The position numbers and the translations under genes were made by a program. Of a stretch of 64,000 bases of DNA, positions 54,558 through 61,060 are shown piece after piece (positions within the stretch are counted from its first letter, which is position 1; every line of letters starts with the position of its first letter). The notes below the pieces were generated by a model. That model had not been told where the DNA came from. It made no database searches and saw only the letters and a list, made by a program, of their open reading frames with translations. The stretch is from Bacteroidia bacterium (GTDB lineage: Bacteria > Bacteroidota > Bacteroidia > AKYH767-A > 2013-40CM-41-45): the NCBI GenBank assembly GCA_035341855.1, contig DAOQWA010000012.1:2451-66450 (forward strand), read 5' to 3'.

Positions 54558-55019
54558 TTGAATAATATGCAAACCATTTTAGTAAATATTGCGATAGTAC
54601 TTGGCAGCTTTATAGTAATGGAAGGAGTAGCCTGGTCATCACATAAGTTTTTAATGCACGGATTTCTTTGGAAAGTTCATCAAGATCATCATACAGGAAC
54701 GAAAAGTTTTTTTCAGAGAAACGATCTCTTCTTTTTCATCTTCGCTATTCCGAGCTGGCTCTTTATGATGTTCGGCATTATGGCAGGATGCGACTATCGT
54801 ATGTGGATAGGAATTGGAATTGCCCTGTATGGAATAGCATACTTTATGGTTCATGAAGTCATTATTCACCAACGCTTGAAATTTTTCAGCAGAAGCAATA
54901 ACAGATATATCGTTGCCGTTAGAAAAGCCCATAAAGCACATCACAAACACCTGGGAAAGGAAAACGGTGAGTGTTTCGGCATGTTAATGGTTCCTTTCAA
55001 ATATTTTAAAAGACAATAA
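54558..55019 (+). CDS. crtZ: beta-carotene hydroxylase
   Basis: MEGVAWSSHKFLMHG, HQDHH, FMVHEVIIHQR and HKAHH histidine boxes. Confidence 0.9.
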   Translation: MNNMQTILVNIAIVLGSFIVMEGVAWSSHKFLMHGFLWKVHQDHHTGTKSFFQRNDLFFFIFAIPSWLFMMFGIMAGCDYRMWIGIGIALYGIAYFMVHEVIIHQRLKFFSRSNNRYIVAVRKAHKAHHKHLGKENGECFGMLMVPFKYFKRQ

Positions 55020-55114
55020 TTTAAGTTTTTTTGAGGCATTTCAGTGTAAATCTGAACTTTCTATTTCCTTTTTTGTTTTAGCAAATGTTTTCACTCTTAC
55101 GCCATTAAATCCCT

Positions 55115-55774
55115 ATGCTTCAGAAAGTTTTTCTTACCGTCTTAGTTTTGCTTGCTTTTAGCTGCCTTTCTTGCTCTTTAACTTCCAATACCAGCAGAAA
55201 TTATCTGATTGATGCCATACATAGACCATATGACATCATTGTTGTCCCGGGCGTTCCTTTAGAGAGTGAAGAATGGAGCCTGACTATGAAAGCCAGGATA
55301 TATTGGTCAAAATACTTATTCGACAAAGGCATTACAAAAAACATTATGTATTCAGGTTCCTCCGTATATACACCCTACTATGAAGCGGAGGTCATGTCCT
55401 TATTTGCGCAAGCAATAGGTATTCCGAAAGAAAATATTTTTACAGAAAAGAAAGCCGAACACAGTACTGAAAATATTTACTACGGCTACCAAAAAGCTTG
55501 TTCTCTGGGTTTTCAAAGAGTCGCTCTGGCATCTGATCCTTTTCAAACTAAACTATTGAGACGATTCACAAAAAAGAAAGTGAGCAAAGATGTCGGACTC
55601 ATACCCATAGTATATGATACTCTCCGAAGCATGGAGCCATTCATGATCGATCCGAAAATTGAATACCAACAGGCACACAATCCGGATTTTGTATCCATTG
55701 AGGAAAGAGAATCATTCTGGCAGAGATTAAGAGGAACCAGAGGATTGAATCTGGACGAAAATGCATATCAGTGA
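55115..55774 (+). CDS. YdcF/DUF218 family lipoprotein-like protein
   Basis: IVVPG, SGSSVYTPYYEA, AEHSTENI and SDPFQ. Confidence 0.85.
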   Translation: MLQKVFLTVLVLLAFSCLSCSLTSNTSRNYLIDAIHRPYDIIVVPGVPLESEEWSLTMKARIYWSKYLFDKGITKNIMYSGSSVYTPYYEAEVMSLFAQAIGIPKENIFTEKKAEHSTENIYYGYQKACSLGFQRVALASDPFQTKLLRRFTKKKVSKDVGLIPIVYDTLRSMEPFMIDPKIEYQQAHNPDFVSIEERESFWQRLRGTRGLNLDENAYQ

Positions 55775-56073
55775 TTTATTATCATGATCATTTAAATTCC
55801 TAAAGAAGCCGGGTACCGGCAAATTTTTAAATCCTTGGTCGCCCATAAAACCGGGAAGGAACACCATGCTGGAGCTATTTAGTGCCCTCAGAAAAACTTG
55901 AAAACAACCAATGGGGGTACCCGAAAATCTTCTCAGGAATATTTTTGTCATTTATTTATTCTTTTAATCAAAATGTTTTCTTCGATTATGTATTTTGTAG
56001 CCTCAGATCACAGAGAATTGCTATCCTGTTTGTAAGACGATCAAATCTCATTTTGCAAATAAGCAACACAAGC

Positions 56074-56090
56074 ACGCAATCTATCTGCGC
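56074..56090. promoter_or_regulatory. candidate WYL operator upstream of the WYL gene
   Basis: ACGCA-atctatc-TGCGC, 16 nt upstream of ATG 56107. Confidence 0.55.
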
Positions 56091-56106
56091 ACTAATCTTT
56101 TTTTTT

Positions 56107-57117
56107 ATGCCAAAGAATAAAGAAGCTTATACCCGCTATCGCCTCATCGATGAGGCTTTGAAAAACAAACAAAAGCCATTTCCCAGCCTTAATGAACTGG
56201 CTGAAAAGTGTGAGCACCTTCTTGGAAAACGTGTTTCGGAGTCAACAATGCAAAAAGACATATATGCCATGCGTTTTGATGAAGGGTTAAATTTTCTTGC
56301 TCCTATCAACTATAGTAAAGCAAGAAAAGGTTATTACTATACTGATCCTGACTACTCCATCAGTAAATTACCTTTAAAGCAGGAAGATCTTTATGCACTG
56401 GAATTTGCAGCAGGATTATTAAGGCAATTCAAGGATTTCCCGATTCTGAAACAGTTTGACAATACCATCGGACGTTTATTACAAGCCGTACAGATAAGTC
56501 GTTCTCTTTATGGCACAGAAATAACAGATTTCATCCAGGTTGAACGACCTTCACACTCTGATGGAACAGATCATTTAGAGAAAATCCTCAAAGCTATCAC
56601 CAATAAAGTGGAGATCCAGTTTCAATATTTTAATTTTTCCAAAGCAACTACCAGTCATCATAACCTTCATCCATACCTGGTAAGAGAATACAGAAACCGA
56701 TGGTATGTCACTGGACACTCGCCTAAGCATAACAGGATCCTAACTTTCGGACTAGATCGCATTAAACATCTGCAGGTAACAGGAACAATGTTTGAAAAAG
56801 ATGCACACTTCAACGCAAAGAAATTCTTTCATCATTCTTTCGGAATCACTGTCAACGATCTTATCCCGGTTAAGGTTGAATTATCATTTACTCCACTGGA
56901 GGGCCTATACATAAAAGCTCAGGCTATCCATCACACACAAAAAATACTGAAAGACAATTCAAAGGAATTAAGAATAAGTATTGATGTCATCCCCTCTCAT
57001 GAATTAAACATGCAAATTCTGAGTTATGGCGATAACGTAAAAGTTATTAAACCAAAGGAGCTGAGAAAAGAAATCCAGGATAGTATTAAAAGTGCTTTGA
57101 AGAATTATACCAAGTGA
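56107..57117 (+). CDS. wHTH-WYL-WCX transcriptional regulator
   Basis: MPKNKEAYTRYRLID...STMQKDIYAMR (wHTH), LHPYLVREYRNRWYVTG...TFGLDRI (WYL) and HELNMQILSYGDNVKVIKP (WCX). The ORF-track start at 55882 is over-extended. Confidence 0.93.
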   Translation: MPKNKEAYTRYRLIDEALKNKQKPFPSLNELAEKCEHLLGKRVSESTMQKDIYAMRFDEGLNFLAPINYSKARKGYYYTDPDYSISKLPLKQEDLYALEFAAGLLRQFKDFPILKQFDNTIGRLLQAVQISRSLYGTEITDFIQVERPSHSDGTDHLEKILKAITNKVEIQFQYFNFSKATTSHHNLHPYLVREYRNRWYVTGHSPKHNRILTFGLDRIKHLQVTGTMFEKDAHFNAKKFFHHSFGITVNDLIPVKVELSFTPLEGLYIKAQAIHHTQKILKDNSKELRISIDVIPSHELNMQILSYGDNVKVIKPKELRKEIQDSIKSALKNYTK

Positions 57118-57200
57118 GTTTAACCCCAATCTTTTCTCAGTTCAAAATATCCTCTCTTGTTAATTTCAGGAATAGCGATAAAAGAATCCCTAAAGCCTGA

Positions 57201-57219
57201 TACGCATATACAATGCGTA
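57201..57219. promoter_or_regulatory. perfect palindrome, candidate WYL operator upstream of the DUF2779 gene
   Basis: TACGCAT-ataca-ATGCGTA, 34 nt upstream of the ATG. Confidence 0.65.
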
Positions 57220-57253
57220 GTGACTCATTATTTTTACAATCTCAAAAACTCTG

Positions 57254-58723
57254 ATGCGTCACATTCTATCTAAATCAACATTCCTCTACGGTACACAGTG
57301 CCCAAAGCGTCTTTACTTTTATAAATTCAGGCGTGATTTGCTGGGAGAAATTTCTGCATCTCAACAAGCAATCTTTGACAGAGGCACCTCAGTGGGAGAA
57401 CTGGCAAGGGATCTATTTCCGGGTGGCGTGGACGCCTCGCCTGCCTCGCCATATGACTATGCAAAATCAGTCCTGGTCACAAAACAGATGATTGATGCAG
57501 GTGAAAAAATTATTTATGAAGCCGCCTTCCAATACGAAGGTGTTTTGGCTGCCGTTGATATACTGGTAAAGAAAAACGGAAAGTGGAAAGCCTACGAGGT
57601 AAAAAGCTCTACCTCTGTGAAGGAAGTGAATATTCTGGATGCAGCACTACAATACCACGTAATCACTAATTCCGGGATAGACCTGGCAGATATATTCATT
57701 GTCCATCTTAACAACGAATATGTTCGCAAAAAGAATTTAGTGATAGAGGAATTATTCTCAATAGTGTCAGTAAAAAATGATGCACTGGAAAATCAAACTT
57801 TTGTCATCGAAAAAATTTCTGAATTACTCGATCTGATAAAGTCAAAGAAAGAACCTAAGCAAGATATCGGACCACATTGCTCAGATCCGTATACCTGTGA
57901 TTTCATGGATCATTGTTGGAAACATATTCCCGAACCTTCTGTTTTCAATCTTACCGGTATGCGTAGCGCTAAAAAATTTGAGTTTTATGAACAGGGTATT
58001 ATAAAAATCTCTGACCTACCCGATAGCACACAATTAAGCGACTATCAACACATCCAGATGGAAGCATATTTGAAGAATAAAAAAAATATTGACAAAGAAA
58101 ATCTACGCGACTTCCTTAAGGACTTCAGATACCCATTATACTTTATGGACTTTGAATCTTTCCAGCCGGCAGTACCACTTTATCGAAATAGCAGACCCTA
58201 TCAACAAATTCCTTTTCAGTATTCATTACATTATTTGAAAGACAAAATGTCGAATGCTCATCATTCAGAATTTTTAGCAGAGTCAAACGGTGATCCCCGT
58301 ATTCCTTTCATCGAAAAACTACTTGAGGATACAAAATCTGCCGGAAAAATAGTCACTTACAACATGTCTTTTGAACGAATGATTCTCAATAGCATTGCCA
58401 ATGACTTTCCGCAGTATGCAGAGGATATAGAGGATCGCTGTGAACGCTTACTTGATTTGATGCCTCCTTTCAGAAAAGGCTGGTACTACAAACCTGAAAT
58501 GGATGGATCTTATTCAATCAAACAGGTATTACCTGCTCTGGTACCTGATCTTACCTATGATGAACTTGAAATTGCCGATGGCGGCTCCGCAAGTCTGGCC
58601 TTCGAACAAATTCTATTTGACCCCAATGCCGATACAGAAAAAATCCGCAGCCAGCTTCTCGAATATTGCAAGATGGATACATTAGCCATGATCAAACTCC
58701 TGGCTGTTTTGGAAAAAGTATAA
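57254..58723 (+). CDS. DUF2779-type protein: Cas4/RecB-like PD-(D/E)XK nuclease fused to a DEDDy 3'-5' exonuclease-like domain
   Basis: C16 plus C209/C215/C221, VD102IL...E115VK117, MD299FE301, YNMSFE374 and Y471CKMD475. Confidence 0.85.
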   Translation: MRHILSKSTFLYGTQCPKRLYFYKFRRDLLGEISASQQAIFDRGTSVGELARDLFPGGVDASPASPYDYAKSVLVTKQMIDAGEKIIYEAAFQYEGVLAAVDILVKKNGKWKAYEVKSSTSVKEVNILDAALQYHVITNSGIDLADIFIVHLNNEYVRKKNLVIEELFSIVSVKNDALENQTFVIEKISELLDLIKSKKEPKQDIGPHCSDPYTCDFMDHCWKHIPEPSVFNLTGMRSAKKFEFYEQGIIKISDLPDSTQLSDYQHIQMEAYLKNKKNIDKENLRDFLKDFRYPLYFMDFESFQPAVPLYRNSRPYQQIPFQYSLHYLKDKMSNAHHSEFLAESNGDPRIPFIEKLLEDTKSAGKIVTYNMSFERMILNSIANDFPQYAEDIEDRCERLLDLMPPFRKGWYYKPEMDGSYSIKQVLPALVPDLTYDELEIADGGSASLAFEQILFDPNADTEKIRSQLLEYCKMDTLAMIKLLAVLEKV

Positions 58724-58765
58724 AGCTGATGATTACCGTTCTTTCAATTAGCTAGCCACTAATCT

Positions 58766-61060
58766 CTAGTCTTGTTTTAGCATTAGAACTGAACGAACAA
58801 ATGTTTTGCTTCGTAATTCTACCAGATACAAACCATTAGCTAATTCCTTCCCGGCACGAATAGTCCCGGTTTTGTTTTCTATTGCCTCCAACATGCGTCC
58901 GCTTTGATCATAAACATATAAACTCAGATTTTCATCCGTTTCTATATTAAAAGTGCTACTGAACGGGTTGGGGTATAAAACTATTGCATCTTTCATGCCG
59001 GCTGATGGCTCAAGACCTGTACAAATATCCAGGGTCACTTCAATAGTATCTTTGCCAATACATGAAAAACTATTTGATACACTAACCCTGAATGAAAATG
59101 TTCCTGTACCTCTTCCATTAGTATCAACTGTTATCACCTGAGTATTCTGTCCGGTGTTCCATAGATAGCTTGAAAATCCTGCACCTGCATCCAATTCTAA
59201 ACTTTCATTTTGACAAATAGTTGTATCTGGTCCCAAACTAACAACAGGAACTGCATTTACCACGATATTCTGTGTATCTCTGCCTGCACAGGTATTTGAA
59301 TCAATATAAGTGTAAATGATTGGGTGCGTTCCTGCACCTGCAATACCGGTGTAAAAGGTAGTTCCCCCTACTGCATTCCCGCTGTAAGTTCCACCACTTG
59401 GCATACCGGAGTTTAAGCTTACCGGTCCGGTGTTGGCACAAACACTTGCAAATGTCCCTAATGTAACCTCCGGAGAGCTATTAACCATAATGACAGATGT
59501 GTCTGTATTCACACAACCGTTTGAATTTGTATATGTATAGGTAATTGTATGAAGACCTGTATCAGCAACAGCAGGTGAAAACACATTAGAACTCACCCCA
59601 TCGCCACTATAAACACCACCGAGAGGATTGCCTCCGCTGAGTGTAAAAGGGCTAGCACTTTTGCATACATCACTAAGCGAATTAAATGTCACAGAAGGCA
59701 ATCCGCCAACTTGCAGGGTTCCTGTAGTTGAGTCAGAACAACCTGATGCATTGGTAAAACGATATGCTATGGTATGTGTGCCTACTCCTGCAACACCAGG
59801 ATCAAATTCACCGGCACTAACCCCGGGACCTGAATATACTCCTCCTGTAGGAGTTCCTCCGGTCAATGCAAATGGAGCTGCGTCAATACAAACAACGGCA
59901 AATGTAGCCAGGCTGACAGTTGGTGATGCATTAACTGTGATAGACGAACTGGCAGAACTCGAACAACCGTGGGAATCGGTATATTCATAGGTGATCGTGT
60001 GTGTTCCGGTTCCTGCATCTACAGGATCAAAAACACCTCCGCTGACTCCGCTTCCACTATAGCTTCCTCCGCTGGGACTACCACCACTTAAAGTCACTTC
60101 TCCGGCATTATAACATCTGTTGGGAAATGATGATAAGGTTACCGTTGGCAAGCTGTATACGATAAGAGTTCTTGTAGCAAAATTCGAACATCCCTGAACA
60201 TTCGTATAAGTATAGGTAATCGTATGAAAACCCGTTCCTGCATCATCTGCGCTAAAGGTGTTTCCACTCACACCTGGACCACTATAAACGCCTCCCGATG
60301 GAGAGCCTCCACTGAGTGTACGCGGGTCATCATCAATACATGAACTGGGTTGTGATGCAAGCGATACGGTTGGTTTTGGATTTACAGTCAATGTTATTCT
60401 TTCATAAGCCTGACAACCTGAACCATCAGTACCTAAGACCGAATATCTTGTTGTTGCACTCGGTGAAGCAACTACAGACGGACCAACAGTAGTTGACAAA
60501 CCACTTCCCGGCGACCAAATATAAGTACTGGCACCAGAAGCATCCAAATTGACTGAAGAGCCAGAACATAACACTGTATCGGATGCTGTGATTTCAATCG
60601 ATACTCCAAATGGAATAGTATCTGCTTCAGGATAAATTGAAGTAAGATAATCACTTCCTCCTCCTGTGCCGTTAAACTCGAAAATCGCAAAATAGTAGGT
60701 CTTGTTTGCATTTAGGGCCGTTACAGTGACGCTACTTCCGGTTGCACTATATACTACATAATTATTGCTTCCAAGATCGGTCCCTGAACCAAATATATTT
60801 CCTGCAACATAACCGACTCCATCAACAGGGAAACTACTCACAGGACTTCCGGATGAACCAACAACTAATCTCCTCGTACCGTCTCCCTGCACCCAACTGA
60901 TGTCGACTTCATTGCAATTGCTAACCGATAAAGTCATCAGGGAAGAAGGAATGGTAGGCTCCACAGCCTGACTATTATTTACACTACCGAATATTGAAAG
61001 GATAATTAAAAGAAACAAACTGAGGGTGGTTGTATCTTTTTTAATAGAAACTGGTTTCAT
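58766..61060 (-). CDS. T9SS-secreted surface protein with FN3-like N-terminus and tandem Ig-like repeats
   Basis: Signal peptide, DISWVQGDGTRRLVV...YYFAIFEFNG, five 75-aa repeats and LYPNPF CTD. Confidence 0.85.
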   Translation of the reverse strand: MKPVSIKKDTTTLSLFLLIILSIFGSVNNSQAVEPTIPSSLMTLSVSNCNEVDISWVQGDGTRRLVVGSSGSPVSSFPVDGVGYVAGNIFGSGTDLGSNNYVVYSATGSSVTVTALNANKTYYFAIFEFNGTGGGSDYLTSIYPEADTIPFGVSIEITASDTVLCSGSSVNLDASGASTYIWSPGSGLSTTVGPSVVASPSATTRYSVLGTDGSGCQAYERITLTVNPKPTVSLASQPSSCIDDDPRTLSGGSPSGGVYSGPGVSGNTFSADDAGTGFHTITYTYTNVQGCSNFATRTLIVYSLPTVTLSSFPNRCYNAGEVTLSGGSPSGGSYSGSGVSGGVFDPVDAGTGTHTITYEYTDSHGCSSSASSSITVNASPTVSLATFAVVCIDAAPFALTGGTPTGGVYSGPGVSAGEFDPGVAGVGTHTIAYRFTNASGCSDSTTGTLQVGGLPSVTFNSLSDVCKSASPFTLSGGNPLGGVYSGDGVSSNVFSPAVADTGLHTITYTYTNSNGCVNTDTSVIMVNSSPEVTLGTFASVCANTGPVSLNSGMPSGGTYSGNAVGGTTFYTGIAGAGTHPIIYTYIDSNTCAGRDTQNIVVNAVPVVSLGPDTTICQNESLELDAGAGFSSYLWNTGQNTQVITVDTNGRGTGTFSFRVSVSNSFSCIGKDTIEVTLDICTGLEPSAGMKDAIVLYPNPFSSTFNIETDENLSLYVYDQSGRMLEAIENKTGTIRAGKELANGLYLVELRSKTFVRSVLMLKQD
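59249..60373 (-). repeat. five tandem 225-bp (75-aa) coding repeats
   Basis: Units of the form PxVxL...C...LxGGxPxGGxYSGxGV...F...AGxGxHxIxYxYT...C; 5 x 225 bp spans the interval exactly. Confidence 0.85.

Follow-up and report, generated by a model that had tools for sequence, protein, structure and literature searches.

In Caulobacter, Actinobacteria and Acinetobacter, the action of WYL-domain transcription factors that sense nucleic-acid damage and activate their targets has already been elucidated. SiwR of Mycobacterium smegmatis is a homodimeric WYL activator of adjacent genes that uses a 19-bp imperfect palindrome in the neighbouring promoter, as the locus described here would; it differs in that its palindrome lies between the -35 and -10 elements and in its DinB-superfamily targets. 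PafBC, the actinobacterial damage-response activator that acts by sigma adaptation, consists of two WYL proteins, paired as a heterodimer or fused, with only one DNA-reading HTH, and its composite motif is the RecA-NDp motif. This motif is made up of a box and a -10 element at fixed spacing, the -35 element being replaced (PMC8635444). DriD, which activates an SOS-independent damage response in Caulobacter crescentus, binds ATACGAC-N7-GTCGTAT, a site that covers part of the -35 region and keeps a constant spacing to the -10 element in promoters without a recognisable -35, where sigma region 4 docks on the opposite face of the DNA (PMC13004042). The driD promoter itself carries the motif 10 nt before the start codon, an arrangement that was interpreted as negative autoregulation (PMC9186387). 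BrxR and CapW are described as WYL repressors that leave the DNA on ligand binding (PMC9122588, PMC11662680), and the operators of CapW overlap the -10 element (PMC9122588). Both are wHTH-WYL-WCX homodimers with ~20-bp palindromes beside their own genes, and they stand next to BREX, CBASS or other defence operons. Systems in which a WYL regulator has palindromic operators next to its own gene are already known; the phylum and its own promoter grammar are new, and our literature search found no WYL regulon or operator described in Bacteroidota.

The window, that is, the whole 64-kb stretch of DNA analysed, contains a single WYL gene at the locus studied (Table 1). Pfam recognised the WYL (2e-13) and WCX (6e-11) domains in its product, and the AlphaFold model (pLDDT 85) showed helices at residues 5-57, a wing at 67-78 and helices at 92-133, followed by beta-rich WYL (barrel) and WCX domains. 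Foldseek with the full-length model returned PafB (1.7e-14) and DriD (~1e-13), then BrxR (1e-9) and CapW (1e-8), and a sequence search of the PDB gave the same ranking, PafB being the best match by both sequence and structure. As modelled, the fold thus resembles the activators PafB and DriD most, and BrxR and CapW less; the latter two are weaker but clear structural relatives and, at ~290 aa, shorter than the 336-aa window protein. DriD has the same size and the same order of domains, but its identity to the window protein is only ~18-20%. Because the locus combines a single WYL gene with a symmetric operator, different in both respects from PafBC, the arrangement implies that the regulator would act as a homodimer. 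The equivalents of DriD Y168, Y192 and W206 are retained (Y174, Y200 and F214), whereas those of R204, R207 and Y240, which contact ssDNA in DriD (the arginines being key contacts in DriD and PafB), are L/I, G and S/T; conservation of these residues therefore gives no backing to ssDNA as the ligand, which the first-pass annotation had suggested adding in binding assays. The family has its own invariant residues R196, N197 and R198. The neighbouring genes encode a DUF218 protein, a fatty-acid hydroxylase and a protein with a T9SS tail, and this synteny is conserved. PADLOC returned generic WYL and Cas4 matches only. The locus lies in a core chromosomal context and not in a defence island, another difference from BrxR and CapW.

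Two copies of ACGCA-N7-TGCGY, the common form of site 1 (before the WYL gene) and site 2 (before the DUF2779 gene), were found in the window, compared to 0.04 expected by chance, and none of 100 shuffles of the 64 kb reached this count. No third operator of at least 10 bits was detected in the window with a 19-column weight matrix. The sequences, coordinates and identical half-site spacing given in the first-pass annotation proved exact, the two -7-like boxes TCATTTTG and TATTTTTA were where it had placed them, and its impression that the intergenic regions hold no other copy extends to the whole window. One of its claims had to be turned round. Site 1 had been taken for the weaker site, yet it scored 29.1 bits, compared to 22.7 bits for the 'perfect' palindrome of site 2. 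We rejected the palindrome as the stronger site: the family consensus fits site 1 better, because the asymmetric ATA of the spacer outweighs outer symmetry in it.

Table 1. Positions of the features discussed in the text; coordinates refer to the window unless a locus handle precedes them
Feature	Position	Strand	Details
WYL regulator gene	56107-57117	+	336 aa; wHTH / three-helix bundle / WYL / WCX
Site 1 operator ACGCA-atctatc-TGCGC	56074-56090		Halves ACGCA 56074-56078, TGCGC 56086-56090; window text aagcACGCAatctatcTGCGCactaat
Site 1, read on the other strand		-	GCGCA-GATAGAT-TGCGT; core CGCA-N7-TGCG with ATA in the spacer
-7-like box of leftward unit, CTTATTTG	56056-56063	-	TTTG 15 nt after TGCG
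-7-like box TCATTTTG	56048-56055	+	Candidate WYL promoter of the first-pass annotation
Site 2 palindrome TACGCAT-ataca-ATGCGTA	57201-57219		TACGCAT 57201-57207, ATGCGTA 57213-57219; window text ctgaTACGCATatacaATGCGTAgtg
Site 2 operator core ACGCA-TATACAA-TGCGT	57202-57218	+	
-7 box TATTTTTA	57229-57236	+	10 nt after site 2; consensus TAnnTTTG
DUF2779 gene	57254-58723	+	489 aa
Conserved 145-nt element	55801-55944	-	Between DUF218 and WYL genes, left of site 1 unit
Hairpin GCCGGGTACCGGC	55808-55820	both	T-rich tails on both strands; terminator-like
77-80-aa protein genes	L037:4613-4846, L046:4988-5224, L053:5209-5448, L056:5595-5837, L062:4990-5226, L074:5061-5300, L080:1778-2020		
RNA-repair-type examples	L157:2286-3785, L172:192-1775, L176:246-1265, L111:3795-5003		

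The motif was then compared across 80 genome loci that encode WYL orthologues of 37-79% identity (564 kb, all from Bacteroidota-type assemblies), to which closer relatives from metagenome assemblies were added. The core CGCA-N7-TGCG matched 31 times in the 564 kb, compared to 4.0 expected, and 22 of these matches fell within -260/+120 nt of a WYL ORF, compared to 0.14 expected, although many of the genomes are kin and such counts overstate the number of independent events. Sites that had been left out when the matrix was built scored 23-29 bits. The window clade, whose regulators are 67-83% identical, comprises eight members (the window, L001, L002, L081 and L084-L087), and all eight keep both sites: site 1 always lies 18 nt after a box like TCATTTTG, and in seven of them a 10-nt gap separates site 2 from a following TAnnTTT(G/A) box, while the sequence of either gap varies. 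The proposal that the two motifs are one type of operator linked to the WYL gene was thus borne out by this comparison. Sites 1 and 2 are strongly conserved and, judged by this comparison, functional; they are probably operators of the adjoining regulator, the WYL protein being the presumed reader of the box.

Among the 31 core matches, TTTG stood exactly 15 nt after TGCG in 21, on a background of 0.8% per position, and six more had a box that was displaced by one base or ended in A. When the 21 matches were oriented by TTTG alone, their spacers read n-A-T-A-(G/C)-n-n, with A in 20/21, T in 21/21 and A in 21/21. The resulting composite unit is CGCA-n-ATA-nnn-TGCG-N15-TTTG, and a scan of the window with up to three mismatches gave one extra match, at three mismatches, compared to a chance expectation of 1.5. 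In the Bacteroidetes sigma-A -7 box TAnnTTTG, which spans -12 to -5 in Flavobacterium (PMC9723704), TTTG forms the 3′ half. With starts extrapolated from the Flavobacterium consensus, the operator halves would lie at about -38 to -35 and -27 to -24, and the invariant ATA at about -33 to -31. The units have no TTTG/TTG -33 element at the usual distance. Orientation was equally constant: all 48 units at the orthologous loci (39 loci) face away from the WYL gene, 23 of them upstream and divergent and 25 downstream and pointing onward, none pointing into it, and the start codon of the next ORF usually lies 4-30 nt past TTTG.

This grammar resembles that of DriD in several respects. Both systems use a pseudo-palindrome with a 7-bp spacer and a TACG-type half-site (ATACGAC-N7-GTCGTAT and, here, TACGCA-N7-TGCGTA), both place the operator over the -35-equivalent at a constant distance from the -10-equivalent (here with respect to predicted starts), both have another site just ahead of the regulator's own start codon, and both count nucleases among their targets (bapE in the case of DriD). 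The locus differs from DriD in the partner of the operator, a sigma-A -7 box TAnnTTTG combined with an invariant, direction-specific ATA in the spacer; in its targets, which include DUF2779, a TPR protein and a UvrD-like helicase; in the ssDNA contacts mentioned above; and in that the site adjacent to the regulator is a complete promoter unit facing outwards.

The presence and conservation of an operator fit a repressor equally well, and an operator over the -33 region could just as well block sigma-A. Under such a scheme, similar to that of BrxR and CapW, the resting dimer would occupy the -33 region of both units and its own leader, and a ligand would release the DUF2779 gene, the leftward transcript and the regulator itself; the two precedents, described as ligand-released repressors (PMC9122588, PMC11662680), are detectable structural relatives. 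Several observations speak against it. CapW operators overlap the -10 element, whereas here the operator never overlaps the -7 box and ends 10 nt before it (site 2; 7/8 clade members). Simple occlusion would not call for the rigid 10-nt gap or for an orientation that stays the same throughout the phylum, the units have no -33 TTTG, the closest folds are those of activators and the locus is outside any defence island. We therefore regard repression as rather unlikely, while the regulator is probably a Bacteroidota relative of DriD and PafBC, with both motifs as its operators in composite promoters of the activation type.

At site 2, this organisation would form the promoter of the DUF2779 gene, with a predicted start at ~57241, a 13-nt leader and the operator at about -39 to -23; the -7 box TATTTTTA is imperfect. 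The first-pass annotation had put site 2 near -33 before this gene, which agrees with the 10-nt gap described above. It had also suggested that the regulator activates or gates the gene through this site. The placement is indeed activator-like, and it is from geometry that we choose between activation and repression; with phasing rigid, orientation constant, no -33 element and a fold like that of activators, activation through site 2 seems likely, and more so than repression by occlusion. The product carries a Cas4-like PD-(D/E)XK nuclease domain, in which a D...EVK motif and the cysteines C16, C208, C214 and C220 were recognised, followed by an RNase H-like (3′-5′ exonuclease-like) C-terminal domain. 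The DUF2779 family is uncharacterised and predicted to combine a Cas4-type nuclease with a 3′-5′ exonuclease (PMC13621843, PMC3985635). Sequence relatives of the protein were not found among solved structures, and the literature search returned no paper joining WYL and DUF2779. Three arrangements link DUF2779-like genes with WYL orthologues. In the window clade only, the gene stands behind a unit; a distant DUF2779-like gene is fused into one operon with the WYL gene at L075 and L076 and lies divergent from it at L038. A DUF2779-type gene was nearby in only five of the 80 genome loci, and DUF2779 was rejected as the general partner of the regulator.

Site 1 read on the minus strand is also a complete unit, CGCAGATAGATTGCG-N15-TTTG, with no mismatch to the composite pattern, although its box CTTATTTG is imperfect in that it has no TA. 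Its predicted start, from the position of the box, is about 56051. The palindrome TTTGCAAA (56052-56059) is common to this box and to the plus-strand box TCATTTTG, each containing one half. If TCATTTTG served the WYL gene, a candidate plus-strand start would lie near 56060 and site 1 would then occupy about +15 to +31. Site 1 lies 17 nt ahead of the WYL start codon. On a literal reading of the first-pass annotation, site 1 would be a weak auto-repression operator beyond TCATTTTG, with no leftward promoter, and the phasing of the minus strand would be a relic of an ancestral divergent gene. The TCAT..TG of the plus-strand box is kept in 7/8 clade members, most of which have no protein gene to the left, the minus-strand box lacks the TA dinucleotide and the driD promoter offers a precedent (PMC9186387). 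On the other hand, site 1 is the stronger match, the 15-nt phasing of its TTTG is exact in all eight clade members, and the spacing in the plus-strand TTTG-N15-TCATTTTG falls about 5 nt short of what is usual between -33 and -7. Furthermore, L086, which has no 145-nt element, carries the same leftward unit 20 nt before an ORF, and downstream of the site 1 unit comes the conserved element, whose minus-strand fold is the better one, and then a terminator. We consider the literal layout unlikely.

Auto-repression through site 1 is thus plausible as a secondary effect and not evident as its primary role. It is at most a by-product, since site 1 and all 23 upstream units at orthologous loci point away from the WYL gene; it is plausible because site 1 lies so close to the WYL start, in the leader or over a promoter near the ATG. 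A bound dimer, or polymerase at the overlapping leftward promoter, should plausibly also lower WYL expression. In another clade this seems not to apply. The -7-like box of the WYL gene (..TAyCTTGCAGC) ends 4 nt before the ATG in L008-L012, L018, L019 and others, which suggests leaderless WYL mRNAs, and in that clade autoregulation would be unlikely because the WYL box, ~100 nt upstream, serves the divergent TPR gene. A further stretch of the window, TGTTTG..ACAATCATT (56029-56047 and relatives; alignment A2, columns 470-500), shows conservation within the clade to the left of TTTGCAAA. It could either form the first 30 nt of a leftward RNA or contribute to a plus-strand promoter of non-canonical type (TTTG-N15-TCATTTTG).

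We read the site 1 unit as the promoter of a leftward transcript of ~250 nt. No conserved ORF was found to the left of site 1. Where the leftward RNA would start there is a short ORF (21 aa in the window, 8 aa in L002), which was dismissed as not coding, with only ~8 codons conserved and variable lengths, and a 74-aa minus-strand ORF (55727-55951) was rejected because the indels of its relatives are not multiples of three. Beyond ~100 unconserved nt from the predicted start lies the 145-nt element, which is present in the window, L001, L002, L081, L084, L085 and L130. Its consensus fold reached -16.5 kcal/mol on the minus strand, compared to -6.5 kcal/mol on the plus strand; eight pairs showed double changes, 87% of the cells were paired compared to 79% after shuffling, and its covariation was exceeded by none of 500 shuffles. 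There was no Rfam match across 55000-59000 at E-values up to 1, and a covariance model of the element, run over 1.4 Mb of fetched loci, found no match beyond the window clade. From these seven related sequences, the element is a candidate new structured RNA of the minus strand. The hairpin GCCGGGTACCGGC looks like a bidirectional terminator that ends the DUF218 gene and would also end the leftward RNA at ~250 nt.

Flavobacteriales and Cryomorphaceae orthologues are accompanied by a symmetric CGTA...TACG variant of the half-site, and this variant parallels changes in the N-terminal arm and the recognition helix (MPANKYALLRYR compared to MPKNK.A.IRYR) in a protein subclade. The co-variation, confounded as it is with phylogeny, is suggestive only, in the direction of binding by the WYL protein. 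Another transcription factor could in principle read the box, or the box could be a structural or RNA hairpin element whose proximity to WYL genes is incidental; palindromes can form hairpins, and in one case the minus-strand hairpin was scored as resembling a terminator. The hairpin reading fits badly, because the conserved letters include the 'loop' ATA and the phased TTTG. The Bacteroidetes SOS-repressor motifs, GGA-N5-TCC and CTAA-N5-TTAG, are unlike the box, and the box tracks WYL orthologues and paralogues through many unrelated gene contexts, so that we give these explanations very little credence. Two outward-facing units (L003:3318-3351 and L003:4599-4632) also flank the WYL gene of L003, the nearest outgroup (56% identity); their spacer has ATC and their flanking genes are others, with no DUF2779, so that the two-unit layout seems older than the link to DUF2779.

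The genes behind the units vary by lineage, the constant neighbour at the orthologous loci being the WYL gene. They encode a TPR protein of 215-226 aa (11 loci), a UvrD-type helicase (L008, L010 and L012), an HNH nuclease (L076), an LRR protein (L015), an AAA ATPase (L038) and two small-protein families of 62-80 aa. That the targets differ while the WYL gene stays, as expected when a regulator is encoded next to its targets, is the argument that the WYL protein reads the box. The first small family, of 77-80 aa, with the pattern M.NL.DAKR.IDSF.RP.GYNTYAWN..KKMALEVWECYL..., occurs behind CGTA-type units of Flavobacteriales (Table 1), and the second, of 62-63 aa, follows units in L039, L043 and L065.

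When metagenome contigs were scanned for the composite pattern, 120 loci (L088-L207) were retrieved, of which a few GC-rich matches look like chance. The genes behind these units encode RtcB (13), a paralogous WYL regulator (12), Ro60/TROVE proteins (5), IS1595 transposases (5) and T4-type RNA ligases (2); RlaP, a PIF1 helicase, a RecN/SMC-like protein and others occurred once each. The paralogous regulator is ~30% identical to that of the window, and its unit points into its own gene. The box is therefore not confined to the orthologues but shared across a larger WYL family of Bacteroidota, RNA-repair operons included, and the matches suggest that RtcB, Ro60/TROVE, RNA-ligase and RlaP operons are under WYL control in Bacteroidota. 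The IS1595-family transposase genes stand directly behind the unit (L101, L113, L151, L195 and L205), and either transposition would be stress-inducible through the regulator or the box lies within the ends of the element.

In the mechanism that we propose, a homodimeric regulator would bind both operators, at about -38 to -24, in place of a -33 element. Loaded with its ligand, by analogy a nucleic-acid fragment, it would recruit or stabilise RNA polymerase at the DUF2779 promoter. The site 1 unit would fire leftward into an untranslated stretch of ~250 nt that ends in the structured 145-nt element and the terminator, and occupancy of site 1 may also damp expression of the regulator itself, since the -7 box of this unit overlaps the plus-strand box, comparable to what was proposed for driD.

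Taken more broadly, the units may represent a phylum-wide, undescribed class of Bacteroidota promoters for a WYL-run response to nucleic-acid damage, a possibility that we put forward tentatively. The orthologous family would drive DUF2779 and HNH nucleases, a UvrD-like helicase, TPR and small proteins, the paralogous family would drive RtcB/Ro60/RNA-ligase repair operons and itself, and the regulator-side unit of the window clade would drive a new structured non-coding RNA. Bacteroidota promoters use a different -33/-7 grammar, and the direction-specific ATA near -33 raises the prospect that sigma region 4 and the WYL dimer may share one stretch of DNA. The locus offers a ready operator, an easily mutated phased promoter unit and a candidate regulon, and, DUF2779 being widespread, it gives a first regulatory handle on a putative dual nuclease.
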